DNA from: Candidatus Gottesmanbacteria bacterium
GTDB lineage: Bacteria > Patescibacteriota > Microgenomatia > UBA10105 > UBA927
Direction of reading: 5' to 3'
Length of the DNA stretch: 64,000 bases
NCBI GenBank assembly: GCA_963714095.1
Contig: OY970230.1
Location: 198,206-262,205 of the forward strand
The position numbers and the translations under genes were made by a program. Under the pieces are notes generated by a model. It did not search any database, had not been told where the DNA came from, and saw only the letters and a program-made list of their open reading frames with translations. This document shows positions 10,791 through 63,641 of the stretch, in pieces (position 1 is the stretch's first letter; each line of letters starts with the position of its first letter).

Positions 10791-12236
10791 TTACTTTGCC
10801 GCAGCAGGTGTCGCTTCTTTTGGCTTTGTTAAATCAATGATTGCAAATGTATCGTTCCGTACTAATACCGTGTACTTTGCGGCAAGGTCGCGGGTCTCAG
10901 TATCGGCATCGGTTGGTGACACGGTGACGTATGCAGTTGCTCCCATGGCGATTTTCTTATCGATATCAAACCCCTCGGGCCAACCCTGACGCTGGGTCTG
11001 ATACAAAAATGTCGTGTCTCCGTTATATGGCGCTATCACTTTGGCATCTTTCGGAAGTATAGCGTCGGCGGCTTTCCCCGCCGCAACAATTTCAGGATGA
11101 TTAATCCAATAATATGTCCGTATCGTAAACCATGAAAAACCGAGCGCCGCGGCTATACTTAGAATCGCGACGATAATCCCGGGAATTTTCATTCTGAACA
11201 GTGATACGAAGCCTTTCGCGGTATAAATCGCGACAACCGGAAGAATAAGAATTTGATAATAATCATGCTGGACGTTGCCTGTGGCAAAAATAATAAAATA
11301 CAGAAGAGTTCCGACGGCTAACCATCGGAAAATCCATCCTTCTTTTTTATCCGCAGATGACGCCAGGCCTAAACCGAACGGGATAAGCCCCCAGAATCCG
11401 AGGATAAGATCTCCCAAACGGGTCGCAAAAAGCCAGTGAAACCATGCGCCTTTGAAGCGGATACCGTTGCCGTTTAATAACCATGTACTTGCCGGAATGC
11501 CTTCCGGAAATTGAAGTATCCAGCGGCGCCATAATAAAAGTGGGATCACCGAAATAGTGCCGTACAGAAGGTATTTAAAAAATGTTTGTTTCGAAATACC
11601 AGATTGCCTAAAAATAATATACGGGATGGGAATAAGAAGAAATACCGCCATGGGTTTAGACAACAATGCCAATGCGCCTGCAATAGCGCTGACAATGACC
11701 CAGCGAAAATTTTTCCTCCGCCCGACCAGCCACAAACTCAACACGGACCAGAATACCATCTGCGGATCCGGCAGTATGGTTCTGCCGTAGTACATACTGT
11801 ACGGCAGTACAGCAAAAAGAAATGCAGCAAACAAACCGGTAACAGGGTCAATATATTGGGCTACCAATAGTCCTAAGACAACCGTTGTTCCGGCGGATGC
11901 CGCGATCGTCACGATTCGGAGCCACACTTCAATCGGAATCTTCGGAATACTCAATTTGCCCAATACCGCAATAACCTGATAGATCGGGAATTCCACCATC
12001 CGCCAGCCCTGCGGGTTATCTTTACCGGATTGAATGTTCGAGAGGTCATCATATCTCGGGTGTAGTGGGTCTATCCCGAACCGCAAAAAATTCCGGGCAA
12101 CAGCAGCGGTATCGGCCTGGCGCCAACTATGCCAGTCCGCGACCGGATACGTAATATGGTATAACCGCACACCACAAGCCGCCACGCCAATACAAAACAA
12201 AAGGGGAATAAAATATTTAGCGATAAATTTTCCCAT
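10791..12236 (-). CDS. Polytopic membrane protein, candidate GT-C-fold glycosyltransferase (ArnT/PMT-like)
   Basis: About 12 predicted TM segments. An acidic loop motif follows TM1 (DWHSWRQADTAAVARNF), as in GT-C first periplasmic loops. Confidence 0.5.
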   Translation of the reverse strand: MGKFIAKYFIPLLFCIGVAACGVRLYHITYPVADWHSWRQADTAAVARNFLRFGIDPLHPRYDDLSNIQSGKDNPQGWRMVEFPIYQVIAVLGKLSIPKIPIEVWLRIVTIAASAGTTVVLGLLVAQYIDPVTGLFAAFLFAVLPYSMYYGRTILPDPQMVFWSVLSLWLVGRRKNFRWVIVSAIAGALALLSKPMAVFLLIPIPYIIFRQSGISKQTFFKYLLYGTISVIPLLLWRRWILQFPEGIPASTWLLNGNGIRFKGAWFHWLFATRLGDLILGFWGLIPFGLGLASSADKKEGWIFRWLAVGTLLYFIIFATGNVQHDYYQILILPVVAIYTAKGFVSLFRMKIPGIIVAILSIAAALGFSWFTIRTYYWINHPEIVAAGKAADAILPKDAKVIAPYNGDTTFLYQTQRQGWPEGFDIDKKIAMGATAYVTVSPTDADTETRDLAAKYTVLVRNDTFAIIDLTKPKEATPAAAK

Positions 12237-12239
12237 ACA

Positions 12240-15233
12240 TTATTTTTCGACTTTCATAAGCTGTTTCAACTGATAGTTTTCGAAAATAAATCTCTCCGCT
12301 GCAAACCCTACTTGTACTGGCGTGCTATATGCGGCTTCAGGCGTTGAAACGTTTGTCGTCGTATACCCATATGCATTCAACCGGAAAATATGCCACAAAG
12401 GATCCGCTAACCCTGTCGGGAAAATCCACGCGCGCCCGTACCTGATTGGCGTATTGATAAATATGAAACTGGTATATTGCCGAAGCGGGAAAAATTGCTT
12501 ACTTAAAGCAAGAAGTGTATTCTGGGAAACGGAACTTGCTTTTTTCCAATCAGTACTCAAACGCCCGATTTCCGACACATTCCATACGATAAGTCCTGCG
12601 ATTGCGGCAACGACAACGAATTTCACGGCGGCCTGCCGTGAGCGTTTCCACCATACAGATATCCCCGTACCCAGTGCCACAATAAAAAATCCGCTCGCGG
12701 CAAACACGTACCGTTCACTCATGTTTCCCAACCCGATAAATGCCAAAAGTGCAACGAAGCCGCATAATGCCCAGAAAAACACTGCGCGGTACGCGGCAAC
12801 GCGGCGCCAAACTTTCCATACGCATGCGGCAACGCCACCGATAAGCAATAACCCAGTCCCCACGGCAATCATGCGATGAATCCGCAGATACTCCCGCAGT
12901 ATTCCCCAGGATTCAATGACGCGGGTTCCGAAAAAGGTTGAGACGACATAGCCGACGGTGTTTCCGATAACGTTAAACGGCAACGTCGAGAGTTTGTAGC
13001 CATAATCTCCTGATGGAGGCACAGCACCCGAAGCAGTCCTGACAATCCAATACAGCGGTATTGCTATCAAAGGTAAGAACGTTGTCCAGTGGCGTTTACC
13101 CAGTATTACCCACGCAACGAGACAGTAAATAAGAGGCGCGACGATCATCCCATCATATGAGAGCATAGCGGACACGAGTAAAAGGAGTGACGCACAATAT
13201 ACTACCCATTTACCCCATGTAGGGCGCCGTCCGTACATCACCAAAAGAACGATACTGCCGAACAAACTGGCTGCAGAAAGTAAACTGCTCTGCCCTGAAA
13301 TCCAAAAAACATTTTCGTTGTGTATGGCAAGTGAAGTAAAGAGCAAGGCAAAAACCAGCGCTACCCAACGTTTGACGTCCGTCAGAACCAGCAGAAGATA
13401 CACAAAATACGCGCTTACGGCCAAAAGCAGGTACGACAAGAAGTGATACCCTTCGGGCTTCAGCCAAAACACCGCATACAGGACAAAATACCAAAACTTC
13501 GGTATCGGACGATAAAAAAATCCCTGGGCATTCGTAAAGTACGAAAGCAAACCCGAGAACGGCGTACTGGCTGCCCACCGCAGCCAGGTAAAATCATCCG
13601 CGACGAAATAGTTAGAAATGGAAGAACCGAAAAGCACAATGGCTGCCAGAAATAAATACATGGCATATGCGATATCATGCGTTAATGCGCGCCACATCAG
13701 TCTCATATAATCCGTAAACCGAAATTCAACCGTCGTAAGGAGTGCAAGCGCGACTCCAAGGAGTAACCATAACGTAAAGGCCACCTTCGACGCTTCAAAC
13801 ACGTCAATAAGAATCCCGTTAAATATTAAACCCGTGAGACCTCCGAATACGCCGACAACAAACGCCTTCTGATATCCGACGAGCGTTTCTTTCCGCCTGA
13901 AAAATATAACATAGGCGGCAAGAAGTATCCCTAAAAACGCAACAGTTCCCAATATGCCGGTTTCACCCAGCATCCTGACATAATCGCCGTCGGATGCCAC
14001 TGATAGCGTCGAATAGCCGCTCCCCAACAGGATATTCCGTTTGAAAGCGGTCATTGCTAGAGGCCACTCCCCCTGCAGACGCGTCGTGATGGAAATGTCA
14101 TAAACGAGCGCCTTCTGGATGAGGAAGCTTCCGGAAACCGTAGCGATTTCTCCCGTTCCGCTTTCGAGACTCACGCTGGTGTAAGAAATCGTCTTTACCT
14201 GGCTCGAAGCCGAAGCAGGCGCCTGCGACGCAGGCAAACCGATATATTCACTTCCTGTCGGCAAATTTTCCACAGCCGGAGATGCAGACTGCTGAACAAC
14301 CGCAGTTGTCCCTTCGAGGGACGCAAGTGTCCCGACCGGTTTACCGGTAGACAAATCCACAATGACGTCATTATATCTGAATGTTTTATAAAACCGATCC
14401 GATGCACCATTAAAAAAATTCAGCAGGAAAAAACTGAAGAGTATAACCGGAATGATAAACCATTTCTTTTTATACCAAAAAAGCATCACGCTTATCGCGA
14501 CAAGATACACGAGAAACGACGTCCGTGATTGTGTGAGAAACAGCATGACGAGCGATCCGACGGACACCATGAAAAATATAATTTTCTGCCACAGTTTATT
14601 GGCCGCAAATACAAACGCGGTAAGAATCGGAACGGTGAAAACGACAAATGCAGCAAGATCATAATGTCCTCCAAAGGTTGAAGGGATGCGCGCCGTAGGC
14701 GGAAGACGAAGCGGTATTCCCTTTGCGAACTGCTCGTTCATCGTCAAAAATGCCGGCCAGCCGAAAAATTTTTCACCAAGTCCGTATACGATAATGCCTA
14801 CTGTTGTTCCCACAAGCGTCCAGATGACCGCCGTAACCAACGACTTCTTCCTGGCAACGACGTCAAATGCTATAAAAAACAGCATCATGTATTCTATCCG
14901 CCGGAGCCAATGCAGCAAAACAAGATGGGGGAAATACCCGACAAGCTTTGGACCGATAAAAATCATGGAAAAGACAGCCGAAATAAGGCCGACGCCCCAA
15001 AAAACAAGAATCGGCCATGTAAGCGGCGTTTTCGGAATATGACGCTGCTGTAGGCGCAGCAGAACATACACACCAACTGCAGCCGCAACAAAAAAATCTT
15101 CCAGGCGTATATAAACAAACGTCCGGATAACATTAATAAGCGGCAACTTCGGATAGAGCGGAATAAACGCCAAAAAAAACAATATCGTCAGTCCGCCGAT
15201 GTTACTGGTTAACCAATGCAAGGCCTTCTTCAT
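12240..15233 (-). CDS. 997-aa fusion membrane protein: N-terminal O-antigen ligase/Wzy-like domain plus a C-terminal second polytopic (GT-C-like) domain
   Basis: The LTQSRTSFLVYLV motif and a large loop ending RMLGETGILG resemble the Wzy_C/WaaL family. A Ser/Thr/Ala-rich linker is present. The C-terminal half has about 10 further TM segments with a VADDFTWLRW motif. Confidence 0.55.
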   Translation of the reverse strand: MKKALHWLTSNIGGLTILFFLAFIPLYPKLPLINVIRTFVYIRLEDFFVAAAVGVYVLLRLQQRHIPKTPLTWPILVFWGVGLISAVFSMIFIGPKLVGYFPHLVLLHWLRRIEYMMLFFIAFDVVARKKSLVTAVIWTLVGTTVGIIVYGLGEKFFGWPAFLTMNEQFAKGIPLRLPPTARIPSTFGGHYDLAAFVVFTVPILTAFVFAANKLWQKIIFFMVSVGSLVMLFLTQSRTSFLVYLVAISVMLFWYKKKWFIIPVILFSFFLLNFFNGASDRFYKTFRYNDVIVDLSTGKPVGTLASLEGTTAVVQQSASPAVENLPTGSEYIGLPASQAPASASSQVKTISYTSVSLESGTGEIATVSGSFLIQKALVYDISITTRLQGEWPLAMTAFKRNILLGSGYSTLSVASDGDYVRMLGETGILGTVAFLGILLAAYVIFFRRKETLVGYQKAFVVGVFGGLTGLIFNGILIDVFEASKVAFTLWLLLGVALALLTTVEFRFTDYMRLMWRALTHDIAYAMYLFLAAIVLFGSSISNYFVADDFTWLRWAASTPFSGLLSYFTNAQGFFYRPIPKFWYFVLYAVFWLKPEGYHFLSYLLLAVSAYFVYLLLVLTDVKRWVALVFALLFTSLAIHNENVFWISGQSSLLSAASLFGSIVLLVMYGRRPTWGKWVVYCASLLLLVSAMLSYDGMIVAPLIYCLVAWVILGKRHWTTFLPLIAIPLYWIVRTASGAVPPSGDYGYKLSTLPFNVIGNTVGYVVSTFFGTRVIESWGILREYLRIHRMIAVGTGLLLIGGVAACVWKVWRRVAAYRAVFFWALCGFVALLAFIGLGNMSERYVFAASGFFIVALGTGISVWWKRSRQAAVKFVVVAAIAGLIVWNVSEIGRLSTDWKKASSVSQNTLLALSKQFFPLRQYTSFIFINTPIRYGRAWIFPTGLADPLWHIFRLNAYGYTTTNVSTPEAAYSTPVQVGFAAERFIFENYQLKQLMKVEK

Positions 15234-16074: not shown

Positions 16075-16638
16075 TCACTGGAAGAGCCTCGAAAACTTCA
16101 GCGTATAGTGAAGATTTTTCGACCGGTCTCGGATATGGCTAGCCGGGACCCCCCCGACCACTTCGTAGTCTCCCACGTCTTTGGTGACGACTGCCCCGGA
16201 TGCTATGACTGCCCCGCGTCCTACATGGACACCGGGTAAAATCGTAACTCTCGTTCCTATGACTGCATAATCATCGATAACAACCGGCGCCGCGACTTCG
16301 ACAAAATCCGGGCTATCTATATCATGCTCCATGGTGTAAATGCGTACTTCACCGGCAATCGACACATTATTGCCTATTTTTAATGGGTGTCCATTCGATT
16401 TTAGATAGGTAACGAAATTTTTCATCCGGCCGTCTAAAAATGCATCATTACCTATCACGGTATTGTGCCCTATCGCGACACCCGCCGGCTGATTAAACTC
16501 CGCACGCCAGTGAATAGAAGAGTCCTTTCCGATTTTAATCCGGAAGAGTGTCCGGTAAAGAAATAAACGAATCGTATGACTCGGAATATAGCCGGTAAGC
16601 GTACAAAGATATACCCAAAAATCTATGAGTGCCCTCAT
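16075..16638 (-). CDS. Hexapeptide-repeat (LbH) O-acetyltransferase, WcaF/maltose-acetyltransferase-like
   Basis: Left-handed beta-helix repeats (IGNNVSIAGEVRIY...ILPGVHVGRGAVIASGAVVTKDV). Start set at the internal ATG (16638), which forms an ATGA overlap with the upstream GT4. The longer extension would overlap that gene by 60 nt. Confidence 0.7.
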   Translation of the reverse strand: MRALIDFWVYLCTLTGYIPSHTIRLFLYRTLFRIKIGKDSSIHWRAEFNQPAGVAIGHNTVIGNDAFLDGRMKNFVTYLKSNGHPLKIGNNVSIAGEVRIYTMEHDIDSPDFVEVAAPVVIDDYAVIGTRVTILPGVHVGRGAVIASGAVVTKDVGDYEVVGGVPASHIRDRSKNLHYTLKFSRLFQ

Positions 16639-17768
16639 ACTTTGCCTCCCACTTTTTCCAATACCTCCAGTGTCTGTTGTGCCGCTTTTTCCCATGTAAA
16701 TTTTTTCACCTGTGCAAGTCCCGCGTCCACACGCTGCCGCCCTTGTATCAGGTTTCTCTGCCGTACTGCCGTAAGAAGCCCGGCAGCGATACTTTCTGCA
16801 CTACCCGCGTCCACATAAATCCCTGCCCTGCCAGCTATCTCAGGAAGACTGGAAACGTTCGAAACGACTACTGGGCATTTATACGCCATCGCCTCCAGAA
16901 CCGGAAGCCCAAACCCTTCGTACAGGCTCGGGAGAGCAAAACAGAGCGCATGTTTGTAAAAAGACGGAAGTTCACCATCAGGCACAAAATCCAAAAATTT
17001 TACGCTCTGAATGACTCCGAATTTTTTCGGAGCGGCAAGGATATCCTCATACAGCCAACCCTTTTTCCCGATGATGACAAGCTGAAGATCGGAGAACTTC
17101 TGCTTATTGGTTCCGATAAACCGTGCAAACGCCTCGATGAGCTTCACATAATTTTTTCTTGGCTGAATCGTGCCTACAGATAGGATAAAATTCCTGCTCA
17201 TATCGTATTTTTTTGTCAACGTTTCAATTGGAACAGAGGAAGTCGTTTTTTTATCCATAGTGAAACCGGGATACATCACAAAAACCCTATCCCCGGATAC
17301 GTGATATTGCCTAATTATAGCATTTTTGCTGAACTCGCTTATCGTCAGTATCCTTGCCGCATGTGCGACTCCATACCCTGTCCATTGCTTCAGCTGATAC
17401 AGATCCTTCGGTTTAAACATTTCGGGATACAACAGGTACGACAAATCCATAATCGCCATCACCCTGGGAACGCGTACAAAACGGGGTATATAGTGCGTCG
17501 GAGAAAACATAACATCAAGTGCAGGCTCCTCTTTCCGAATCGCCAGAGGCAATCCCACCAACGTCCATAATTTCGACGGTCTGCATACGCGATACTGCCA
17601 GTACCTCGTTTCTTTCGGCATATCATTTTGCGCAGACCCGGGCAAAAACACAGTTACGTTGTGCCCAGCCATGAGCGGATAAAGATGCACAAGAATTTCG
17701 TACGCGTACCGGCCGATACCCACGCGGTTAACGACATTTGCTTCATACCCGTCGATTCCTATATTCAT
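16635..17768 (-). CDS. Glycosyltransferase family 4 (full length)
   Basis: MNIGIDGYEANVVNRVGIGRY N-domain plus FALPSLYEGFGLPVLEAMAYKCPVV C-domain. Confidence 0.8.
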   Translation of the reverse strand: MNIGIDGYEANVVNRVGIGRYAYEILVHLYPLMAGHNVTVFLPGSAQNDMPKETRYWQYRVCRPSKLWTLVGLPLAIRKEEPALDVMFSPTHYIPRFVRVPRVMAIMDLSYLLYPEMFKPKDLYQLKQWTGYGVAHAARILTISEFSKNAIIRQYHVSGDRVFVMYPGFTMDKKTTSSVPIETLTKKYDMSRNFILSVGTIQPRKNYVKLIEAFARFIGTNKQKFSDLQLVIIGKKGWLYEDILAAPKKFGVIQSVKFLDFVPDGELPSFYKHALCFALPSLYEGFGLPVLEAMAYKCPVVVSNVSSLPEIAGRAGIYVDAGSAESIAAGLLTAVRQRNLIQGRQRVDAGLAQVKKFTWEKAAQQTLEVLEKVGGKV

Positions 17769-18325
17769 AATGAAAACCCCGGATATATAACGTGGAGTTT
17801 GCTTTCAGGAATGTGCAACAGCTCCATAATGTCTTTTTTTGTCGATTCACTGTCACAAAAAATGGCTGCGCATTCTTTTTTCACCCACCTGAGCCTCCGT
17901 GCATGCGTAGCCACAATACCCATATCCATTTCCTTTAGAAAACGTATCGTCGAAAGATCATGAACGGTTGTCACACCTTTTGCATGGAATAGCGGCGGCT
18001 GCGTCCAATCGCTGCTCCAAAAAACATCCAACGGCCCGGTAAATGTTTCAACAGGCAGAACATGAAAACTGTTCCACATGATGTCCAAGAGTTTCGGCGG
18101 AAGAGGAATCCTCTTTAATTCTACATTTGGATTTATCTTCCTCATTTCCTGAAAAAACTCTTCAAATATATGTTTTTTCCGGAGTGATGCGCCGAATAAA
18201 ACATATGTATTTCCCTTATCAATTTTTAAAAGCGTTTTAACCATGCGCCGGACATAGGCTGCCACTCCGGTGCCCTCGTAGACTATCTGGCTGATATCTA
18301 TTCCGATACGCATATACCCTATCAT
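17765..18325 (-). CDS. Orphan GT4 N-terminal domain (186 aa), no C-domain
   Basis: MRIGIDISQIVYEGTGVAAYVRR... ends VIYPGFSL at the interdomain linker. ATGA-coupled to the downstream full-length GT4. Confidence 0.5.
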   Translation of the reverse strand: MIGYMRIGIDISQIVYEGTGVAAYVRRMVKTLLKIDKGNTYVLFGASLRKKHIFEEFFQEMRKINPNVELKRIPLPPKLLDIMWNSFHVLPVETFTGPLDVFWSSDWTQPPLFHAKGVTTVHDLSTIRFLKEMDMGIVATHARRLRWVKKECAAIFCDSESTKKDIMELLHIPESKLHVIYPGFSL

Positions 18326-18326
18326 C

Positions 18327-19940
18327 TCATTTTTCAGGTAAATAATACAAAAACTCCTGTGCTTTTGCCCGTTGCTGTTGTGTTAACCCTGATACTAAAG
18401 ACTTTTTTATATAGAGACATGTAGGTTTTCCTTCCGAATACCACTGTGCATAGAAAGGTAAAAATTGGGACGGAAAACGCGGATGAACCGGTGCGTCCGG
18501 AGTGCAAAAATCATACAGGATATCCGGCGGATCATGGGTAAACATATCGATCATGGCGTTATAATATTTATCTTTAAATCGGATCGGGTAGTAAAACGAA
18601 TATGAATAAGAAGAACTCCTGCCTGATGCGACATACAAAAACTCATCCGCTCCGTTGGTAAAAAGCGTTTGCTGAGGCACAGTTACTGCTTTAATAACTT
18701 CACTTATCTGCAAATAATTCCCGTAATTGGTGATAAACTCCGTCTGCTCGTCAACGTGCTGGTAGATGAAAGATCGCGGAGAAAATAACACGTAGGCAAC
18801 TAAGCACCCTATGATAATAAAAAATATGTATCGTTTACGGACTACCCAAAGCATTTCATAAAAAAGATACAACGACGAAAACAGGAAAATACCATACCAG
18901 TTTATTTCGTGAAACGCTTCAAAATATTGCAAACCCGGAATTGCAGGCCGGAGATTTGCCAAACCCAAAACAATAAAAAGGAATCCCAATACCCACATGT
19001 TTTTCTTTGTTTTCAGCCACAGAAAAACAGAAAAACCAAAAACGACAGTCAAACATATCAATTGAATACGAAAATCATTCCACCTTCCGGCAATAAGAAT
19101 ATAGAGGGGGTAAAAAAATGACTTAACGACGCCGGTACCGAAAAAATGACCCGCTTGCAGCTCGCTGGGTAATCCTGTCTGTAAATTCAGGGTAATAACA
19201 TTATAAACAAAATCACGGACAGGAAACAATATGAATAATCCCGCGGTTAAAATAAAAAATATAGCGAGGGCGATTTTACCGACATTTTTGAAAAACACAG
19301 GGCGGATAATAATGCCAAAAAGAAATATCGCTACCAACACGTACGGTTCTCGCATAAACACAACAAACCATAGACACAGGGCTGTTAAAACGATCTCCCA
19401 ATGGAACACAGGTTTCTTGCGGAGCGTATGCAATCCCAAACCGGTTAGGTACACGAGGGGATATACGATAAAACCTTCAGCCAGAAACCTATCACCAAAA
19501 ACATAAAATTTTGAAAATTCATATAAGAGTGTATATGCAAATCCGGTTATTCCGAACCTCCAACAGATAAAAACGTCAAAAACAAATCCAAACACTAATA
19601 AAAACTGCCGGTGTTGCAATAACAATGCATATATATTAACCGGATGCCCATAGTGCTGAATAACCAAACTAAGATATGCCATAAGCGGCATGTGGTTAAA
19701 GTAAATTTGTGAATACAGTTGCTTGCCCTTCCCAATAAAATATCCGCCAACATAGTTAAAACAGTCATCGAAACAACCAAACGCATTAATTTTCGGAATA
19801 TAGATCTTATAAAGAAAATAATACACAGGGATAAGAAGAATAAACCAGATCGTCAGGCGTACTAACGGATGTGATAAAACGGCGTTCCATGCAAAAGCAT
19901 TATTCTTTTTTTGCATAAGGATCAGGGGAATAACCATCAC
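18327..19940 (-). CDS. Polytopic membrane protein (537 aa), candidate GT-C-like
   Basis: More than 10 TM segments, with a FGCFDDCFNY acidic motif after TM1. Confidence 0.45.
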   Translation of the reverse strand: MMVIPLILMQKKNNAFAWNAVLSHPLVRLTIWFILLIPVYYFLYKIYIPKINAFGCFDDCFNYVGGYFIGKGKQLYSQIYFNHMPLMAYLSLVIQHYGHPVNIYALLLQHRQFLLVFGFVFDVFICWRFGITGFAYTLLYEFSKFYVFGDRFLAEGFIVYPLVYLTGLGLHTLRKKPVFHWEIVLTALCLWFVVFMREPYVLVAIFLFGIIIRPVFFKNVGKIALAIFFILTAGLFILFPVRDFVYNVITLNLQTGLPSELQAGHFFGTGVVKSFFYPLYILIAGRWNDFRIQLICLTVVFGFSVFLWLKTKKNMWVLGFLFIVLGLANLRPAIPGLQYFEAFHEINWYGIFLFSSLYLFYEMLWVVRKRYIFFIIIGCLVAYVLFSPRSFIYQHVDEQTEFITNYGNYLQISEVIKAVTVPQQTLFTNGADEFLYVASGRSSSYSYSFYYPIRFKDKYYNAMIDMFTHDPPDILYDFCTPDAPVHPRFPSQFLPFYAQWYSEGKPTCLYIKKSLVSGLTQQQRAKAQEFLYYLPEK

Positions 19941-43587: not shown

Positions 43588-43593
43588 ATCCCT

Positions 43594-50784: not shown

Positions 50785-50921
50785 CTTCAGTATCAATATA
50801 ATAATTATTTATCGTTTTACGCATGATCAACCTCACTATACTTTTTTAAACCCTGCATTCGTTTCAGAAACATTTTCCTCTTCGTTCTATCAGGGGATGC
50901 ACGCTTCTCTGCTTTTCTTCG

Positions 50922-52034: not shown

Positions 52035-52719
52035 ACGGTAATTTCATAACTACACTATATCGTTTTATTGTTCCTTTATAACCTTTGGGTGCATTTTGCC
52101 ATTCAATTCTATCAGATTTAACAATCCTGATCATGGGCGTCCGTTTCACTTCAGTAAAATCAAGCTTTCGGTAAAGGCGAATGGCTCTTATATTATCAGA
52201 CGTTGTAGACAGCATATACGTTTTAATTCCAAATTCAACCCTGCCCCAACATATCATATGACGTATCGCATCTTCTATAATTCCGGGGTATAAATTCACA
52301 CCACGCACAATATTATCTATTTCGCAGATACGTTTTTGAAAATTAAAACGATACAAGCCGATATGACCGATGTACCGGTTTTTTACTTTTATCATAAATA
52401 AAATCCTGTCGGGTTCATTCACAACTTTATCGCGCAACCATTTTTCGGTTCCTTCCAAGGTAACCGGGAATATTGCAGGAAACCATTGCTCATGCTTTTT
52501 TCTCCATAACGCGAGTAGTTTAATAATTTTTTTATCAGTTCTCTGGTTGTCCGTAACGAGAACTAAATAATAACGAATTTTTCTAAAAATTATTTTAATT
52601 TGTAATTTTTTTCCGTGTTTAAGCAATGAAATTTTGTCTTTCACCAAACTGCTGATATCTCGCTCCGTTAATTTCATAATCAACCTAATGCTCTGTCTTT
52701 TATTCTTTCGATATATCAA
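52021..52719 (-). CDS. GNAT-family N-acetyltransferase (putative amino-sugar N-acetyltransferase)
   Basis: C-terminal GNAT-like block (IGHIGLYRF...YMLSTTSDNIRAIRLYRKLDF). Weak. Confidence 0.45.
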   Translation of the reverse strand: MIYRKNKRQSIRLIMKLTERDISSLVKDKISLLKHGKKLQIKIIFRKIRYYLVLVTDNQRTDKKIIKLLALWRKKHEQWFPAIFPVTLEGTEKWLRDKVVNEPDRILFMIKVKNRYIGHIGLYRFNFQKRICEIDNIVRGVNLYPGIIEDAIRHMICWGRVEFGIKTYMLSTTSDNIRAIRLYRKLDFTEVKRTPMIRIVKSDRIEWQNAPKGYKGTIKRYSVVMKLPYEKI

Positions 52720-52723
52720 CTAA

Positions 52724-53686: not shown

Positions 53687-54441
53687 TCAGGATTCCGTTT
53701 CCATAATGTATTAAGACGTTCCAAATCCGCATATGTATCCATCGATTGCCAAAAACCTTTATGGACAAAAAGAGATAGCTCCCGGTCTTTAACAAGCCTT
53801 TTTAGTGCCTCATGTTCATATTCAGCCGGCCGCAGATAATTAAAAAACTTTTTATCAAATACCATAAATCCGCCGTTTACCCAATCCTGTAAAACAGGTT
53901 TTTCGACAAACTCCGTTACCCTGTGTTTAACATTTTGCCGGACCATTCCGTATTTACTTTTCGGATACACGCCAGTTATGGTACCGATTGTTTTTTGTTT
54001 TCTGTGAAACTGAACTAATTGCCGGATATTGATATTAGACACACCGTCCCCGTACGTAACCATAAAATCTTTATCAGTTTTCGGGATATAATCTTTTACA
54101 CGTATTATTCTTTCACCCGGAAGTGTCCCCTCTCCCGTATCTACAAAGGTAATTTTGAAATTATCGGCGGCAGATGGGTTTTTATGAAAAATCGCTGAGC
54201 CGGATTTTGTGGATAACGTAAAATTTTGTGAAAAATATTTTTGATTTAAAAAATACTCCTTAATCATATCCCCCTTATACCCGAGGGCAATGATAAAATC
54301 ATTAAACCCGTAGTACGCATACATTTTCATGATATGCCACAGGATTGGTTTATTGCCGACCAACACCATGGGTTTTGGTTTAAACTCTGTTTCCTCCTTT
54401 AATCTGTATCCTATACCGCCACATAAAATAATCGTCTTCAT
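53665..54441 (-). CDS. ddhA: Glucose-1-phosphate cytidylyltransferase
   Basis: MKTIILCGGIGYRLKEETEFKPKPMVLVGNKPILWHIMKMYAYYGFNDFIIALGYKG closely follows the RfbF/DdhA pattern (257-aa class). Confidence 0.85.
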   Translation of the reverse strand: MKTIILCGGIGYRLKEETEFKPKPMVLVGNKPILWHIMKMYAYYGFNDFIIALGYKGDMIKEYFLNQKYFSQNFTLSTKSGSAIFHKNPSAADNFKITFVDTGEGTLPGERIIRVKDYIPKTDKDFMVTYGDGVSNINIRQLVQFHRKQKTIGTITGVYPKSKYGMVRQNVKHRVTEFVEKPVLQDWVNGGFMVFDKKFFNYLRPAEYEHEALKRLVKDRELSLFVHKGFWQSMDTYADLERLNTLWKRNPEWKIWKD

Positions 54442-56823: not shown

Positions 56824-57615
56824 TTACCCTATGTTTATGCGGAAATTCAATTCCGGATCAAACCGCCACTTTCGTTTGCTTGCATCATCATAATAATGAA
56901 GAATACGCAAACGATAAAATACTGCAAGAGTATCATTCAGCGTATTGTAAATGACCGGCAGAAATTTTCTCCAGGAAATGCTCGATTTTGCGGAAAATAA
57001 ATTAATTTCTATCGGCGCTTCATATATTTTTCTGTATCCTAAATAATATGCCACGGCAAGTATTTCAATATCGAAGGCAAATTGTTTTACGAGGAGTCTC
57101 GGAAGAACATCTTCTAGAAGCTTTCGCCTGTATATTTTCATCCCCACCTGCGTATCACGCACATTTAGTCCGAATAATATTCTCGTAATTTGTTGATATA
57201 CCCACGAAATAATTTTTCGTATATACGGATACTCTACTTTTGAATCCGGGTGGCGTTTACTTCCGATAATTGCATCCGCATGTTGAAACTCAAATTCTGC
57301 AAGCATGAGAGGAAGTGCTTCCGGCTTAAGATCTCCCCCCGCATCCATAAAACCGACAACATCTCCTTTTGCCTGAGAAAAACCGAATCGCACTGCATAT
57401 CCCTTTCCGTGATTGGTTTGATAACCTGTTATATGAACCCGAGAATCATGTATTGTTTTAATTTCTTCTGTGCTCTTATCCAATTTTCCGTCAATGACCG
57501 GAATAATCTCAAAATCTCTATGCATCTTTGATAATACGTTGATGATATCCGTGATATCACGTTTAATTGTTTTTTCCTGTTTATAGACCGGAATAATAAG
57601 ACTAAATTTTTTCAT
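56824..57615 (-). CDS. Glycosyltransferase family 2
   Basis: FSLIIPVYKQEKT...VIDGKLDKS...DAGGD. Confidence 0.75.
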   Translation of the reverse strand: MKKFSLIIPVYKQEKTIKRDITDIINVLSKMHRDFEIIPVIDGKLDKSTEEIKTIHDSRVHITGYQTNHGKGYAVRFGFSQAKGDVVGFMDAGGDLKPEALPLMLAEFEFQHADAIIGSKRHPDSKVEYPYIRKIISWVYQQITRILFGLNVRDTQVGMKIYRRKLLEDVLPRLLVKQFAFDIEILAVAYYLGYRKIYEAPIEINLFSAKSSISWRKFLPVIYNTLNDTLAVFYRLRILHYYDDASKRKWRFDPELNFRINIG

Positions 57616-58858
57616 GGGATCCTAAAAGATAATATCCTCCGGCAATTATATCGTAAAGCATACATACGCTGATATTAATATAAATAACTCCGATTATACT
57701 CGAATGGAACATACTTATACCGATAATCTGCACGACCGCCGCTCCCATAGAAAATAACCAAATATGCAGTTTTCCAACGGCCAGACATGACATTGCGATG
57801 ATGTTGGCCACGGAAAACAGGCCCAGGAAAATCCCGAACAGCCCCAGCATTGCCCCTGCCCCGGCATATGCGTTTCCAAAAAGCATACCTACGATAAAGT
57901 TCGGGAACACAAAATAAAGAATGGTTATGGCAACCGATATTGCTCCAACTATTCCGACGGCAGAAAAAATAAGTTTTTTTGTTTTGGAGCCCGTGGCTAC
58001 CCGCTCAGAAGCAATCGGAAAAAGCACTATTGGAACAGCCGATGACGCGTAAAATATAATTTTTCCGAGAATCGCCAGCGCGGCATACAATCCTGCGTCA
58101 TGCGCACTGAAAAAATGTCTGACGAGTATGATATCCGTTGAGTAAAGTGATGTAATACCAAGCTGCATGAGAAGCGTTGGTACTGCAAAGGCAAACATAT
58201 CACGGCCTTTAAGTTTTGTTGGCCGCGCCTTTACCGACAACACGAATCGAAGCGGAATAAAATACAAAGCGTAAACAATAATACTCGCCAGTACCGCAGC
58301 CAACATCACTCCCGGGACTCCCCACGCGACCAAAGGAATACTCACCAAAAGTTTTACAAGGATGGCAAGAGCTCCCATAACGCCCACCCAAATAAATTTT
58401 TGATATCCGTTCAGCATGCCTGCTGTTGCAACTGTTACCAGTGAAACAACGAACAATGCATAGAGGAGCATAATCAATACTGAAGACGATAAATGAAGAA
58501 ATGATGTTATATACGGTCCTGTTATGAGAATAATCGGCACACCAACCACGGTGACTATCACAAATACTTTCGTTGCTTCAATGAAGAGCGATTTCGCCTG
58601 TCCGACTTCGCCATGTGCTTTAAAACCTGAAACAAATTTCACGATCACGGTTTGCGCAACCGTCAGCGGCACGGTAAATATATAGAGGAGCGATAAAAGA
58701 GAAGCTAATGCGCCATAGCCGGACGGACCAAGAAGTCTTCCCATTATCAGGTGATACAGGTACGAAAGCACATTGGCGCTCATGGTCCCGACAAAGACGA
58801 TAGCGCTGCTCCGTGCTAATTTATTTGAGGTAAACTTCTGTATAAATCCTTTATTCAT
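57602..58858 (-). CDS. wzx: Polysaccharide flippase (Wzx / MOP-superfamily PST)
   Basis: 418 aa with about 12 TM segments. The N-terminus (KLARSSAIVFVGTMSANVLSYLYHLIMGRLLGPSGYG) is typical of Wzx/RfbX. Confidence 0.7.
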   Translation of the reverse strand: MNKGFIQKFTSNKLARSSAIVFVGTMSANVLSYLYHLIMGRLLGPSGYGALASLLSLLYIFTVPLTVAQTVIVKFVSGFKAHGEVGQAKSLFIEATKVFVIVTVVGVPIILITGPYITSFLHLSSSVLIMLLYALFVVSLVTVATAGMLNGYQKFIWVGVMGALAILVKLLVSIPLVAWGVPGVMLAAVLASIIVYALYFIPLRFVLSVKARPTKLKGRDMFAFAVPTLLMQLGITSLYSTDIILVRHFFSAHDAGLYAALAILGKIIFYASSAVPIVLFPIASERVATGSKTKKLIFSAVGIVGAISVAITILYFVFPNFIVGMLFGNAYAGAGAMLGLFGIFLGLFSVANIIAMSCLAVGKLHIWLFSMGAAVVQIIGISMFHSSIIGVIYINISVCMLYDIIAGGYYLLGSHEKI

Positions 58859-58872: not shown

Positions 58873-60336
58873 CTAGCGCCATTCCTCTGTTTGCCTGTAT
58901 ATCTCACTGGAGTTGATACGTTGATACCCCGCCTTACTAAGCTCTGCACTTGAACTGCCGGACAAATCCAAAAAAGACGTGCCCCCTATACGAAATGATT
59001 GCCGATTTTCAACATTATTTGATGGTATCATATTCATTCCGATTTTAATTCCTGCCTCACCTGCCCGCCCTTCCGCCTCCAGGAACAGCTCTAGGGCTAA
59101 GGGTAAAGGATATTGAGCTTTATAATCATACAAAGCAATGTGTTTTCCTGGGTACCGTGAATATAACGATGTTTTCCAAATCTTAACTAATTGATCTACC
59201 ACATTAACTTTTCCTGTAATCTCTCTACAATCGGATGTAAAGCTCATTATAACAACGAATAGACAAACTAGAATTCCCAGGAATCGAGATTTCATAAATA
59301 TCTTATAAACTACCCAGGCGGAAAGGGTGAGGATAAATGGCTGAAGAAATACCGTATAGCTATCGAATAAAGGAACGTGTGAGTAGCGGAGCATACCTAA
59401 AATTCCGAAAAAAGAACAAATAATTACAATAAATTCAGCAACAATTTTTTTTCTGATGCATCCATATATAAATAACACCGAGACCAATATCATAAAGCCT
59501 GCTCCTATAAATTGATTGCCTCCGATTATTCTTCCCCATGTCGTTGGCCAATAAATTGTAAGGTATGTCAACCATCTTCTTCCTAAAGCTTCCAGTGGTA
59601 TGCGATACTGATCAAAACGGATGTAATAGATCATATTTCTCATATTAACGAACCCGTTCCGTATATCGAATAGTAATATCGGTAATGCACCAATAATACC
59701 GCCTGCGAGTAACAAAAGAACATTTGATACGTGAAATTTTTTCTCCGTGATTTGTGCGATTAAAACACAAATTCCGAGGATAAAAAGACCGCTACCCTGA
59801 AGATGAAAAGACGCACCCGTTGAAATCAAAAAACCTAATGCAAAGATATAACGGTTCTTACCTGATCGTAAAAAACGAACAACTGACCATAATGCGAATA
59901 TCGATATTATTGCCAAGGGAGATTCATTTGTCAGGCTGACTGATTGAGCGATTTGAGCGGTTGATACCGCGCTAAATAATCCCAATAAAATTCCAAACTT
60001 CGTATCAATTAACTCTGTACCAAACTGAATCATCAAGTAAACAAAAAAAACATATATCAAAGTCAAAACTATCCAGGGAGTTAAGACAGAAGCCGGATAT
60101 AACGCGGTTGCCGCCATAATAAACCAATACCACTGACCACCTGTTTGAAATGGTCCAGCTGACGAAAAAGGTCCGAGAAGCGGAATTTTATGTTCAGCGA
60201 GAGCCGCACGGGCAACAAGAGCGTCATGAGCTTGATCATACCCGAGCTCCCAACGATTACCATAATCGTAAAACCTCAAAATAAATGCCAAGAGAACAAT
60301 GCCTACTGTAACGATAATTATGCTATGTTTCTTCAT
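58873..60336 (-). CDS. Polytopic membrane protein, candidate GT-C glycosyltransferase (ArnT/PMT-like)
   Basis: YDYGNRWELGYDQAHDALVARAAL motif after TM1, and more than 11 TM segments. Confidence 0.5.
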   Translation of the reverse strand: MKKHSIIIVTVGIVLLAFILRFYDYGNRWELGYDQAHDALVARAALAEHKIPLLGPFSSAGPFQTGGQWYWFIMAATALYPASVLTPWIVLTLIYVFFVYLMIQFGTELIDTKFGILLGLFSAVSTAQIAQSVSLTNESPLAIISIFALWSVVRFLRSGKNRYIFALGFLISTGASFHLQGSGLFILGICVLIAQITEKKFHVSNVLLLLAGGIIGALPILLFDIRNGFVNMRNMIYYIRFDQYRIPLEALGRRWLTYLTIYWPTTWGRIIGGNQFIGAGFMILVSVLFIYGCIRKKIVAEFIVIICSFFGILGMLRYSHVPLFDSYTVFLQPFILTLSAWVVYKIFMKSRFLGILVCLFVVIMSFTSDCREITGKVNVVDQLVKIWKTSLYSRYPGKHIALYDYKAQYPLPLALELFLEAEGRAGEAGIKIGMNMIPSNNVENRQSFRIGGTSFLDLSGSSSAELSKAGYQRINSSEIYRQTEEWR

Positions 60337-60352: not shown

Positions 60353-61039
60353 CTAATTTATAAACCGGTATTTAATGATCGTCCAGAAAGCAATAATGCC
60401 GTCACGCCATGTCAGTTTTTTCCCTTCATTAAACTTTCTTCCGTAATAGGAAATAGGGACTTCATATATTTGGTACCCGTTTTTAAGTACTTTGACTGTA
60501 AGTTCCGGTTCGACATCAAACCGCTTGGCACGAATCGTGATTCCGTTCAGCACCCCATGCCGGAATACTTTGTAACAGGTTTCCATATCCGTGATATCGG
60601 TATTGAATAATATGTTTGTTACAAATGTCACAAATTTATTCCCCTGCGCATAAATGAACATAGTTGAAAGATGTGGGCCCAAAAATCGCGAGCCGTACAC
60701 CACATCAACGTGCGGGTTGTCAAATGGAGATAAAAGCACGGGGTAATCGTTCGGACTATATTCCAAATCCGCATCCTGAACCAAGATCACGTCTCCCGTA
60801 GCTTTTTTAAATCCGATGCTTAAGGCGTTTCCCTTTCCTTCATTTTTTTCTTTGTAAATAACACGTACCTTCTTCTCCCAGGATTTCAAAACCGTTTTTG
60901 TGCGGTCTTTTGATCCGTCATCAACAACAATTATTTCCTTTGACCAGCCGGGTATGGCAACCTTTTCGATCCGCTGAAGGATTTCGTTAATCGTATGTTC
61001 TTCGTTATACACGGGTACGATAACGGAAAGTTTTTTCAC
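60353..61039 (-). CDS. GT2 polyprenol-phosphate sugar synthase (Dpm1-like), soluble
   Basis: LSVIVPVYNEEHTI...IIVVDDGSKDRT...VQDADLE. 228 aa, no TM. Confidence 0.7.
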   Translation of the reverse strand: MKKLSVIVPVYNEEHTINEILQRIEKVAIPGWSKEIIVVDDGSKDRTKTVLKSWEKKVRVIYKEKNEGKGNALSIGFKKATGDVILVQDADLEYSPNDYPVLLSPFDNPHVDVVYGSRFLGPHLSTMFIYAQGNKFVTFVTNILFNTDITDMETCYKVFRHGVLNGITIRAKRFDVEPELTVKVLKNGYQIYEVPISYYGRKFNEGKKLTWRDGIIAFWTIIKYRFIN

Positions 61040-62076
61040 ACCAATGCCCTTTCATACGCCGCGACAGTCTCCACTACGACTCTTTTCCAGGTAAACTGTT
61101 TTACCCATACCAATTGACGCATCGCCTGAGCTCGTCTGTCGACAGTAAGCATTTTCTTTATGCCCGCAAGGATCTCTTCCGGTTTTGGTGACACCTGTAA
61201 CGCCGGCCCTGCTATCTCTTTGAGGCTTGAGGTATTTGTGCAAACAACCGGGCAACCGCAGGCCATAGCTTCCAGTACCGGCAGACCGAATCCCTCATAG
61301 TAAGAGGGTTGTACATAGACCGAAGCCATGGAGTAAAAACCAGCAAGATCAGCCAGAGGCACGTTTCCCGGACAAATAACCACGTGTTCCAAATCATGCT
61401 CAAGAATAAACTGATTGATTTCCTGCGTTTCGGTGAGCGTCTCGCAAAATGCTCGGCCGACAAGAACTAATTTATATTCTAATAATTCACTGTGTTGACG
61501 AAGCGCTGCAAAAGCCTGCAATAGCCCGATCACATTTTTATTCCAATTGACGTCCCCGACAAAAAGAATATATTGTTTTGGTAAGGCATATTTCTTTCGT
61601 ATAGCAGCTACTAATTTTGAATCGGTAACCGGATGATACATCGCGTCACGAGCTAAATAAACAGTATCGACAATCTCTTTTTTAACGCCTACAATCCGTA
61701 CAATATCATTTTTTGAAGCGTTTGAGTCAGCAATAATTCGACTCGCGCCTCGAAGTGACAATTTCTGGACCTGCCATTTGATGTTGCCGCGGATGCCTGC
61801 CGGAAATTTGTACGGGAACACCAGAGGAATAAGGTCGTGAACCGTCACCAAAGTCGGCTCCGGTTTAACCAGAGGCAACGTCAGGAAAAACGGGTCAAAA
61901 TACGGATAATGCACGATATCTGCATCGTCCGGCACACGCTGATGACCTGTAAAATAAATATATGTGTGCTGTTTTCCGTATTTTTCCAACCCATCAATAA
62001 GATTCTTCGTATACACACCGATCCCCCGTGCGCGATGCGCGGATTCCAAAGGAGTTATGTCTATTGCTACCTTCAT
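61036..62076 (-). CDS. Glycosyltransferase family 4
   Basis: MKVAIDITPLESAHRARGIGVYT...YVQPSYYEGFGLPVLEAMACGCPVV. Start set at the internal ATG, which forms an ATGA overlap with the upstream stop. The ORF to 62169 looks like a spurious extension. Confidence 0.75.
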   Translation of the reverse strand: MKVAIDITPLESAHRARGIGVYTKNLIDGLEKYGKQHTYIYFTGHQRVPDDADIVHYPYFDPFFLTLPLVKPEPTLVTVHDLIPLVFPYKFPAGIRGNIKWQVQKLSLRGASRIIADSNASKNDIVRIVGVKKEIVDTVYLARDAMYHPVTDSKLVAAIRKKYALPKQYILFVGDVNWNKNVIGLLQAFAALRQHSELLEYKLVLVGRAFCETLTETQEINQFILEHDLEHVVICPGNVPLADLAGFYSMASVYVQPSYYEGFGLPVLEAMACGCPVVCTNTSSLKEIAGPALQVSPKPEEILAGIKKMLTVDRRAQAMRQLVWVKQFTWKRVVVETVAAYERALV

Positions 62077-63641
62077 TGTAAAGAAGTATACCCTAAAATG
62101 ACCAGAACGGCCACGCTTATAACTGAAAGCGCATCCGCGACTTTTCGCACGGGCGTATCGGCAAACCACACGCGGATAGCGTGAGTTCCCTGCGGCACGG
62201 ATATATGTATGATGCCGTCACCTCTATAGTTGATGGGGACTTCTTTGCCGTCAACGGATGCTGTCCATCCGGGAAAATACAGCGTACTCACCGTTACAGT
62301 ACCGGCTTTGTCCATAAGGACGGTAAAATCCTTTTCCATGTACTCCCAACGAGTCTTCTGGGTCATCTGCCCGTTTTCAATTGCATACGGTGCTGCCGGC
62401 CGAGTAGTTTTCCATCCTGTCCAGATCGTCGAGAAACTGTTTCCCATAGACGAGGTTCCGTCGGTAAAATTCGGCCTTGCCAGGTAGTATGCCTCGTTTC
62501 GCGGTTCATAAAGAACCGGACGTGCGTAGGACGCGGCAAGCGCGACACTCAAAACAGCCAAGAATAACCCCCACCACGGACGTTTTAGTCTACTAGTCCA
62601 TACTGCCGCGCTGAAACCGGCAACCGGAATAACAAATGATAACAATCTCCAGGGGTATTGCACAAACGAGAGAGGCTTTATAAGCTCCCACAGAGGAGTA
62701 GAAATCGGCAACATAAAAACGATGCACAAACCGATGATACTCAAAAAATACGCAAATAATTTCGTGTAAGCGCTTTTTGGCTTACGCAACAAAACCCATA
62801 ATGCTCCTGCCATTGCCAACATCGGGGCTATTCCTATCTGTACGGACATGGCAGTACCAAAACTTCCGGTTCCTGAAAAACCTGTTCCCCAGGATGGAAT
62901 TAATAGTTCATACCAGTCAACAAAATATTGCCGGAAGTTCACGGTATTGAGACCCACAACATATTTGGATTCGATAAGTGCCGGCAGCCAGAAAAATGCG
63001 GAAAGTCCGATCCCACCAAGCATCCATAGGGCTCCTTTTTTATTCCGAATAAGAGCATACCCCAGTAAAAACGGCGTATAAAGCATCGCCATGATGTTGT
63101 GCGAAAGAATAAGGAGCCCATATACAATAGCGAACCAGAATAACTTTTTCTTTTCCAGCAGGTAAAAGCACAACAAAAGAAATGCAGTCGCCCAGACTTC
63201 ACCGATCGATCCGCGCACGTACATATCGACAAAAAGATACGGGACAAAGGCGGCAACGATTGATCCGACTGCGGACGGAAGGGCACCAAACAGGGTCAGT
63301 AGCCAGAGAAAAGCCGCCGCTGAGAGTGCTATATACCCCAAACCCATACTCATCTGAAATGCGTATACAGCATCATGAGTCAACATGCGCATAAATGAAC
63401 CGATATAGTCAGGCATGGGGTACTGATAATTAAAAATGGGTATCCCGTACCCGCTGTTCATATCCGGCGCCCATCGGGGAACTATGTATCCGGCTCCCAA
63501 CATCCGGGAAAATTCGACGATGCGGATAATATGATATTCACCGTCATGTGTCGGTATATACGCCTTACCAAACAGTGGACTGACCGCAAAAAAAATTGCC
63601 GCAATACATATGACGGCGGAGAGGACTACAGTTTTTTTCAT
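62073..63641 (-). CDS. Polytopic membrane protein (522 aa) with a C-terminal extracytoplasmic domain, candidate GT-C-like
   Basis: PTHDGEYHIIRIVEF motif after TM1, about 12 TM segments, and a C-terminal beta-rich domain with a final TM. Confidence 0.45.
   Translation of the reverse strand: MKKTVVLSAVICIAAIFFAVSPLFGKAYIPTHDGEYHIIRIVEFSRMLGAGYIVPRWAPDMNSGYGIPIFNYQYPMPDYIGSFMRMLTHDAVYAFQMSMGLGYIALSAAAFLWLLTLFGALPSAVGSIVAAFVPYLFVDMYVRGSIGEVWATAFLLLCFYLLEKKKLFWFAIVYGLLILSHNIMAMLYTPFLLGYALIRNKKGALWMLGGIGLSAFFWLPALIESKYVVGLNTVNFRQYFVDWYELLIPSWGTGFSGTGSFGTAMSVQIGIAPMLAMAGALWVLLRKPKSAYTKLFAYFLSIIGLCIVFMLPISTPLWELIKPLSFVQYPWRLLSFVIPVAGFSAAVWTSRLKRPWWGLFLAVLSVALAASYARPVLYEPRNEAYYLARPNFTDGTSSMGNSFSTIWTGWKTTRPAAPYAIENGQMTQKTRWEYMEKDFTVLMDKAGTVTVSTLYFPGWTASVDGKEVPINYRGDGIIHISVPQGTHAIRVWFADTPVRKVADALSVISVAVLVILGYTSLQ

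Follow-up and report, generated by a model that had tools for sequence, protein, structure and literature searches.

We analysed a 64,000-nt stretch of Candidatus Gottesmanbacteria contig OY970230.1, here called the window, and conclude that it likely encodes a battery of polytopic membrane proteins of the glycosyltransferase-C (GT-C) superfamily; we propose that these proteins assemble a glycan from sugars carried on lipid phosphate. There are 11 complete genes of this kind in the window and one more that is cut by its edge, and counting the region upstream of position 64000 brings the number to at least 13 in about 70 kb. They represent at least five very divergent GT-C families (PMT_2-like, PTPS_related/YfhO-like, AftD/MmpA-like, MptA_B, the 25121 family and the 18327 family). 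Genes are named here by their low coordinate, and those of the cluster lie on the minus strand unless a plus strand is given.

An earlier note, made from the sequence alone, had described an array of about a dozen paralogous membrane proteins with an acidic/His motif after the first transmembrane (TM) helix and had taken them to be GT-C-like. The ten minus-strand open reading frames (ORFs) that it named exist at the low coordinates it claimed, all ten are polytopic by hydropathy, and every motif string it quoted was found in the gene to which it had been ascribed, that of 12240 in the C-terminal half as described. Its GT-C-like reading is supported by hidden Markov model (HMM), profile-profile and fold comparison, the last with models of 40021 and 25121. 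HMM comparison placed none of the proteins in an unrelated transporter family, and the nine complete genes without a fold model also fall in the GT-C superfamily; for these genes, tested via profiles and relatives, our confidence in the GT-C fold is lower than for 40021 and 25121. As to the size of the array, the ten genes were confirmed, but a further one, 26984, had been overlooked, and of the 14 proteins in the window that are polytopic by hydropathy, 57602 and 33382 belong to other families.

The motif lies at residue 34 in 10791, 544 in 12240, 54 in 18327, 134 in 25121, 34 in 28669, 82 in 31626, 38 in 40021, 35 in 44994, 32 in 58873 and 31 in 62073. Its placement just after the first TM helix holds for eight of the ten proteins, where it sits 5–20 residues past the first hydrophobic helix, but not for 25121, where it follows the fourth helix. 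Across the GT-C set, the Asp-containing motif occupies the loop behind the TM helix with which the GT-C module begins. Lysine and arginine residues ahead of TM1 fit a topology with the N-terminus inside, so the motif loop is expected to be extracytoplasmic. A single Asp or Glu after TM1 proves nothing, because 58% of 15-residue loops would have one by chance. An acidic/His dipeptide would turn up in about 6% of loops, and 6 of the 10 have one.

Fold comparison was carried out for two proteins. 40021 (40021–41694; 555–557 aa, motif FYQQDEW) is a divergent PMT_2 relative whose AlphaFold2 model (pLDDT 88.9, pTM 0.90) has a GT-C_A fold; its top 31 Foldseek matches are all GT-C-fold proteins, namely STT3, PglB, DPY19, AglB, ArnT, Pmt4, ALG12, AftA, EmbA/B and the non-catalytic PIG-U. 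25121 (25121–26980; 619 aa), a protein with no Pfam model, likewise gave a GT-C_A fold (pLDDT 94.2), with three extra N-terminal helices ahead of the helix at residues 98–118, after which its motif VFDFGH is found. All of its top 12 matches are GT-C, and its C-terminal domain resembles the globular domain of AglB. Of the 111 cluster representatives retrieved with 25121, not one has a Pfam domain. PDB chains were also searched by sequence, with 26984, 12240 and 22814 singly and with five family profiles; these searches yielded nothing meaningful, TMEM260 (E 1.7 with the 44994 family) being the best match, and only fold comparison was informative.

These models bear directly on the idea that the proteins are unrelated transporters in which acidic residues follow TM1 by chance. 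The expected frequency of a lone acidic residue and the almost nil pairwise similarity among the genes would be in keeping with it. However, transporters appeared in the two fold searches only at Foldseek probability ≤0.13, beneath every GT-C match, so that for 40021 and 25121 the idea is refuted; moreover, within families the Asp does not vary, motifs of different families can be aligned, and Pfam did recognise the two real transporter/acyltransferase families of the window. For the set as a whole we consider it most improbable.

The case for GT-C membership is further carried by conservation of the motif, for which the results cover the families other than 10791 and 58873. The loop Asp of the 40021, 18327, 25121, 44994 and 26984/28669 families is kept in at least 90% of the sequences, in several families in all of them, while the mean identity of alignment columns is 26–50%. 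Invariant residues are F36, D40, E41 and W42 in the 40021 family (n=35), D58 in the 18327 family (n=65), and Y32, G33, N35, D37, H41 and R44 in the 44994 family (n=16); D136 of the 25121 family (n=75) and D36 of the 28669/26984 family (n=15) are conserved at 90% or more. Where relatives are few the motif is also kept: DDFTW in 12240, P(Q/E)WDE in 31626 (three relatives), and THDG(E/Q)xH in 62073 (in the fusion protein P0001, described below, and in an upstream paralog). Profile-profile alignment with hhalign superposes the motifs of different families, FxFxDE on FYQQDEW, ADDF on QDEW, SGDAPF on GHDSGF and GHDSGF on THDGEY. Non-conservation of the acidic motifs is thus ruled out wherever relatives could be compared.

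Kinship between the genes was found mainly at the level of profiles. All-against-all blastp and phmmer comparison of the set gave no significant pair except 26984 and 28669 (E 3e-8), so the word paralogous is apt for the superfamily but, pairwise, for these two genes alone. By hhalign, the C-terminal half of 12240 matched the 40021 family with a probability of 98.8% (E 4e-17), ADDF falling on QDEW; 26984 matched 28669 at 98.3%, the 25121 family at 95.5% (E 1.5e-8) and 62073 at 93%; the 18327 and 40021 families matched each other at 89–94% with their DE motifs aligned, and 58873 matched the 40021 family at 86.6% (E 4e-6). Lower values were obtained for 28669 and the 25121 family (70.7%) and for 44994 against 10791, 62073 and 31626 (64–77%). 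Since they are linked by profiles with near-nil pairwise similarity, the genes are, on this sequence evidence, ancient superfamily relatives and not recent duplicates. Each of the GT-C families is separately conserved across other Microgenomates.

Five genes are of PMT_2 type, 40021 among them. Pfam gathering cut-offs are 26.1 bits for PMT_2, 22.7 for PMT, 26.4 for PTPS_related, 28.5 for YfhO and 31.7 for Wzy_C. 10791 (10791–12236; 481 aa, DWHSWRQAD after TM1) passes two of them, with 35.5 bits to PMT_2 and 24.4 bits to PMT. 31626 (31626–33356; motif WDEHQY) scores 25.2 bits, just under the PMT_2 cut-off, and a 576-aa relative of it in another locus (L005) bears PMT_2. The ORF is over-long: relatives align from about residue 41–49, and judging from this alignment the true start is probably M31 (at about 33266); the over-extension explains why the motif lies as far in as residue 82. 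44994 (44994–46997; 667 aa, motif YGVNWDTYQH) combines a PMT_2-type GT-C with a C-terminal extracytoplasmic domain. Its own PMT_2 score is below the cut-off (22.1 bits); PMT_2 is matched by 15 of its 16 relatives (best E 1e-10), PMT by two and F5/8 type C, weakly, by two. 58873 (58873–60336; 487 aa, motif GYDQAHD) is a probable PMT_2-type GT-C with a below-threshold score of 20.5 bits, and it had no match in a scan of viral contigs. 40021 has no Pfam match of its own, and 19 of its 35 relatives match PMT_2; most relatives of 44994 and 40021 do so at E<0.01.

62073 (62073–63641; 522 aa, motif THDGEYH) is a GT-C of PTPS_related/YfhO type, scoring 30.3 bits to PTPS_related (PF10131), above the cut-off, and 24.8 bits to YfhO (PF09586), below it. 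The C-terminal end of a further GT-C gene follows at 63638–64000, where the window edge cuts it. A locus identical to the window end (L001) gives the full gene, which encodes a 380-aa protein of the MptA_B family (PF26314) and lies directly upstream of 62073. Further upstream this locus carries a 162-aa ORF, a glycosyltransferase family 2 (GT2) gene and a 542-aa paralog of 62073.

The AftD/MmpA-like genes 28669 and 26984 form a tightly joined pair. 28669 (28669–31629; 986 aa) has a GT-C domain over about residues 1–450, with the motif GHDSGF, followed by a large domain outside the cytoplasm; a TM helix anchors the C-terminus. Its paralog 26984 (26984–28672; 562 aa from M19) starts at the catalytic-loop motif, SGDAPF, and has no first TM helix. 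The conserved ATG of 26984 overlaps the TGA stop of 28669 (ATGA, 28669–28672, minus strand); the listed TTG start at 28726 would add 18 residues that the relatives do not have. In six relatives of 26984, all starting at this same point, G7 and D8 are invariant. Pfam GT-C_AftD (PF11847) does not match either protein itself, and it is found in 2 of 15 family members (best E 1.1e-6), DUF5667 in 5 of 15. The NCBIfam model MmpA (NF053599) gives 36.7 bits with 26984 and 24.5 with 28669, for a cut-off of 210, and from these matches the two are best described as related to the AftD/MmpA family and not as members of it. When genome contigs were scanned with 26984, two loci were found. Locus L002 (CAYWVJ010000029.1) is labelled ‘uncultured Gammaproteobacteria’ and has a trio of 28669-, 26984- and 25121-like genes at 33–52% identity in the Microgenomates order; it is probably a mis-binned contig of the Candidate Phyla Radiation (CPR).

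Some members of the set, 26984 and 28669 above all, might instead be non-catalytic scaffolds or lipid-delivery factors of GT-C fold, like MmpA or PIG-U, that partner active enzymes. MmpA is the sole named NCBIfam match of the pair; it is reported to be needed for transport of trehalose lipids to the surface and to be homologous to the membrane domain of AftD (PMC8698533). The missing first helix of 26984 and the presence of PIG-U and GAB1 among the fold matches point the same way. Yet the loop Asp is kept in both proteins and across the 15 family members, the MmpA scores are far under the cut-off, and two relatives match the model of the catalytic GT-C_AftD. We regard a non-catalytic role as unlikely and retain the pair among the presumed enzymes.

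12240 (12240–15233; 997 aa) is a membrane protein of two domains. Its C-terminal half, about residues 510–923, is of GT-C_A type and has the ADDF motif. The N-terminal half resembles, by sequence, the Wzy_C/O-antigen ligase-polymerase proteins, with a Wzy_C (PF04932) score of 23.7 bits over residues 224–428, which is under the threshold, and an IctB-like NCBIfam match of 30 bits; Wzy_C is matched at E<0.1 by two of four relatives. In the current classification the Wzy_C/IctB-like side is GT-C_B (PMC10920833). Relatives in two other loci (L003 and L009) are full-length and cover both halves, and a third (L008) has an unaligned 995-aa ORF at the same position. We found no description of a fusion between a Wzy-like and a GT-C_A domain, no systematic literature search having been aimed at this architecture.

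18327 (18327–19940; 537 aa, motif FGCFDDC) is a probable GT-C with no Pfam model. Its family comprises 410 cluster representatives at E≤1e-3, and 65 members compared with Pfam gave no relevant match apart from one Wzy_C hit at chance level (E 0.0067). The assignment draws on profile-profile alignment and on P0001, a 1096-aa CPR metagenome protein (L005:3210-6500, L006:2209-5499) in which a PTPS_related/YfhO domain like 62073 (37% identity) is joined to a domain like 18327 (40%). Because they are fused in P0001, 18327 and 62073 are suggested to act together, though they are 42 kb apart in the window. One could also imagine that 18327 and 25121 are Wzy-type polymerases or ligases, of GT-C_B and related clans, which use sugar-diphosphate-lipid donors. 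In its favour, Wzy proteins are known to diverge strongly and often go unannotated, the surrounding cluster is a Wzx/Wzy-type one, and one of the 65 relatives of 18327 weakly matches Wzy_C. We consider this reading highly unlikely and keep both proteins with the GT-C enzymes proposed to use lipid-phosphate sugars.

Several observations weigh against the proposal that the set consists of GT-C enzymes fed by lipid-phosphate sugars. 31626, 40021, 44994 and 58873 themselves stay under the PMT_2 gathering score, no relatives of 10791 and 58873 were retrieved, and profile searches against PDB sequences were nil. The equivalence of the loop Asp with the catalytic Asp, which we infer, is one of position only. 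MmpA, the closest named relative of 26984 and 28669, has been described as a lipid-transport factor and not as an enzyme (PMC8698533). Finally, no GtrA-type flippase for lipid-phosphate sugars was found by Pfam in the window, whose intergenic gaps do not exceed 323 bp, or among the upstream ORFs, where the 162-aa product is soluble.

The genes around the GT-C set are of the kind found in polysaccharide loci. The long ORFs of the window lie almost all on the minus strand in a single tight array, and Pfam and NCBIfam scans revealed a polysaccharide-type cluster from about position 4996 to the window end; the cluster exceeds 64 kb and extends beyond the edge. RecO and a class II tRNA synthetase at 1085–2944 flank it. 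The window, about 6% of a Microgenomates (CPR/Patescibacteria) genome of some 1.09 Mb, probably represents most of one supercluster for cell-envelope glycan biosynthesis, nearly all of it on one strand. The cluster has an initiating phosphoglycosyl transferase of the small PglC/WbaP-C type (4996–5634; Bac_transf, 202 bits), a Wzx/MOP-type flippase (57602–58858; above cut-off with Polysacc_synt_3, at 37.2 bits, and with Polysacc_synt, at 28.8 bits) and a polytopic membrane O-acyltransferase that is not a GT-C (33382–34593, plus strand; Acyl_transf_3, 98.4 bits). About 15 ORFs encode soluble GT2 or GT4 glycosyltransferases; sugar tailoring is represented by two nucleotidyl transferases, five NAD-dependent epimerases/dehydratases, three DegT aminotransferases, a split transketolase and methyl-, acetyl- and GNAT transferases.

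Three GT2 genes resemble polyprenyl-phosphate sugar synthases. For 22082 (22082–22792) the best NCBIfam matches are AglJ, PpgS, ArnC and dolichyl-phosphate hexose transferase, all below their equivalog cut-offs, together with Glycos_transf_2; for 56824 (56824–57615) they are ArnC, PgfS, PpgS and AglJ; and 60353 (60353–61039), which is polyprenyl/dolichyl-phosphate hexose transferase-like, scores 111 bits with AglJ, 69 with dolichyl-phosphate hexose transferase and 65 with ArnC. By these matches 22082 is a candidate maker of the lipid-phosphate-sugar donor. Two of the three sit among 58873, the Wzx gene and 62073, with 60353 placed between the two GT-C genes.

The neighbourhood is not peculiar to this genome. 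Three other genomes keep the order of 28669-like, 26984-like and 25121-like genes, epimerases, a GT4 N-domain gene with a GT4 gene, a hexapeptide acetyltransferase, a GT2 and a 12240-like gene, and 44994-, 40021- and 28669-like genes occur together in many metagenome contigs. The same gene sets recur in Roizmanbacteria, Levybacteria, Gottesmanbacteria and other CPR contigs, and further relatives came from records of the Microgenomates/Patescibacteria group. Because gene sets and order recur across genomes, GT-C arrays appear from these comparisons to be a recurrent feature of the Microgenomates.

Drawing on what is known of Wzx/Wzy pathways and GT-C enzymes and on the three-component systems (PMC11127046), we suggest the following scheme, in which glycosyltransferase activity, lipid-linked donors, acceptors and the order of action are all things that we infer. 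The phosphoglycosyl transferase 4996 would start a repeat unit on polyprenyl phosphate at the cytoplasmic side, and the soluble GT2 and GT4 enzymes would elongate it with unusual sugars supplied by the nucleotidyl transferases, dehydratases/epimerases, three DegT aminotransferases, methyl- and acyltransferases and split transketolase. Wzx (57602) would flip the unit, to be polymerised or ligated by the Wzy-like N-terminal half of 12240. In parallel, the DPM1/ArnC/AglJ-like GT2s 22082, 56824 and 60353 would load single sugars onto polyprenyl phosphate; these lipid-phosphate sugars would be flipped and then used on the outer face of the membrane by the GT-C enzymes, the loop Asp acting as catalytic base or metal ligand. 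In this way the battery may lengthen the polymer or surface proteins, add branches to them or decorate them. The 12240 fusion and the translational coupling of 28669 with 26984 suggest that some steps are physically coupled.

A different emphasis would be that the GT-C enzymes chiefly glycosylate proteins (S-layer proteins, pilins or Thr/Pro-rich surface proteins), in the manner of PMT/GT39 enzymes and oligosaccharyltransferases, and not a polysaccharide. Five genes are PMT_2-like, and STT3/PglB, DPY19 and Pmt are among the closest structural neighbours. At the window edge, about 4 kb from the cluster, 602–1075 encodes a small protein that is anchored in the membrane and has a stalk rich in Thr and Pro, TPPATTQTTTDITTTPVPS; it could conceivably be a substrate of O-glycosylation. 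On the other hand, the genes sit within a Wzx/Wzy-type cluster that also encodes an initiating transferase and numerous soluble glycosyltransferases, 12240 joins a GT-C to a Wzy-like polymerase/ligase domain, members like AftA, AftD and MptA act on glycans in known systems, and PMT_2 also covers the lipid A modifier ArnT. That proteins are the chief targets seems to us somewhat unlikely, but the two roles are compatible and not mutually exclusive.

Comparison with known systems places the window proteins in a familiar class. The ArnT/PMT_2 and PMT enzymes (CAZy GT83/GT39; PF13231, PF02366) are alike in that 10791 passes both models and that 31626, 40021, 44994 and 58873 or their relatives match PMT_2; both groups also have the GT-C_A fold and, in the first outer loop, an acidic DE/WDE motif, and the same kind of donor, a polyprenyl-phosphate monosaccharide, is expected. 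They differ in that most window proteins fall below the gathering threshold, 44994 ends in a large outside domain that gave weak discoidin-like matches, and the genes lie within a Wzx/Wzy cluster and not in an arn or pmt context. Like the YfhO/CsbB/GtcA and GtrA/GtrB/GtrV three-component systems (PMC11127046), which pair a GT2 polyprenyl-phosphate sugar synthase with a GT-C acting outside the membrane, the window has synthase-like GT2s close to GT-C genes: 62073 is PTPS_related/YfhO-like, and the DPM1/ArnC-like GT2s 60353 and 56824 adjoin GT-C genes (58873, 62073) and the flippase. Unlike those systems, its sole flippase is of MOP/Wzx type with no GtrA/GtcA type, and it has three synthase-like GT2s for at least 12 GT-Cs, which is not an arrangement of one-to-one modules. 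Wzy/WaaL (GT-C_B, Wzy_C; PMC10920833) is approached by the N-terminal half of 12240, Wzy_C/IctB-like with the typical large outer loop, in a cluster with Wzx and an initiating transferase, but here the score is sub-threshold and the domain is fused to a GT-C_A domain, a fusion kept in Microgenomates relatives.

The resemblance to mycobacterial arabinogalactan and lipoarabinomannan (LAM) assembly that the earlier note had proposed holds as a functional analogy, not as membership. No close sequence relationship links the window proteins to AftA, AftB, AftD, EmbA-C, MptA/B and PimE or to MmpA, identities in the structural alignments being about 7–16%, and unlike the mycobacterial set the window genes lie in one operon-like cluster with Wzx/Wzy-type genes, in a CPR host with a genome of about 1 Mb. 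UbiA and DprE-type genes for decaprenyl-phosphate arabinose were absent from the Pfam matches of the window ORFs scanned, which held only generic DPM1/ArnC-like GT2s and one MptA_B-family gene.

A further polytopic candidate is the 760-aa product of 22814 (22814–25096). It has a signal peptide, then an outside domain of roughly 440 aa, some six TM helices and a C-terminal domain. Pfam, NCBIfam and PDB sequences gave no match to it, and the fetched loci contained no relatives. Its hhalign probability to the 40021 family was 19%; with this value and no family match it was not counted as a further GT-C, and no class was assigned to it. The gene adjoins the synthase-like GT2 22082.

Other features of the locus were observed alongside. 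A DUF4012 protein with one TM helix and a large outside domain (2946–4940) adjoins the initiating phosphoglycosyl transferase, a position that suggests for this uncharacterised family a role as a chain-length or export co-factor. ORFs for the N-terminal (7786–8271) and C-terminal (8261–8782) halves of a GT4 overlap by 11 nt in different frames; the gene is either split or a frameshifted (pseudo)gene. A stand-alone GT4 N-terminal protein (Glyco_transf_4; 17765–18325, about 185 aa) is directly upstream of a complete GT4 (16635–17768); the pair is kept in three other Microgenomates loci (L007, L008, L009), and the stand-alone protein may be a regulatory or heteromeric GT4 subunit. The transketolase is split into N- and C-terminal genes (49028–50796) amid DegT aminotransferases, with the same layout in locus L011, and suggests synthesis of a branched or two-carbon-extended sugar. 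G+C is 0.36–0.40 at about 32000–44000 and at 52000–54000, against 0.44–0.49 in most other segments; in the former block lie 33382 (Acyl_transf_3) and 36578 (a GT4), which are the sole genes that the cluster has on the plus strand. The block looks like a mosaic or variable part of the cluster, of the sort found in O-antigen loci.

The enzyme class is thus known, and the window proteins are new, mostly unannotated and present in unusual density. Three families have no usable database model: 18327, 25121 and 28669/26984, the last only marginally touched by Pfam. Unusual as well are the conserved Wzy-like/GT-C_A fusion, a TM1-less GT-C coupled through an ATGA overlap, and the three-helix N-terminal extension of 25121. 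For CPR genomes we found passing remarks on mannosyltransferases (PMC6031116, PMC4736985), and our literature search returned nothing on GT-C arrays in this group. Going further, we tentatively raise the possibility that a major glycoconjugate of the Microgenomates envelope is put together largely outside the cell, with at least 13 GT-Cs in one locus, some of them from families absent from Pfam, the 12240 fusion coupling polymerisation to side-chain addition, and 28669 and 26984 forming an obligate heteromer like EmbA-EmbB or Pmt1-Pmt2; the locus would then be an independent CPR counterpart of the mycobacterial arabinogalactan/LAM machinery.

With a fold and a candidate catalytic residue now assigned, three sizeable families of ‘hypothetical proteins’ become targets for HMM building, CAZy classification and biochemistry. 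To our knowledge, the cell-surface chemistry of CPR/Patescibacteria, organisms with tiny genomes, is essentially unknown, and the locus points to an elaborate, unstudied cell-surface glycan. That a genome of about 1.1 Mb devotes more than 64 kb and at least 12 GT-Cs to one glycan locus implies that the surface glycan is central to CPR biology. Such an investment could plausibly serve host attachment or phage evasion and, if the glycan is indeed built outside the cell, an extracellular GT-C assembly line may underlie the attachment of these bacteria to their hosts.

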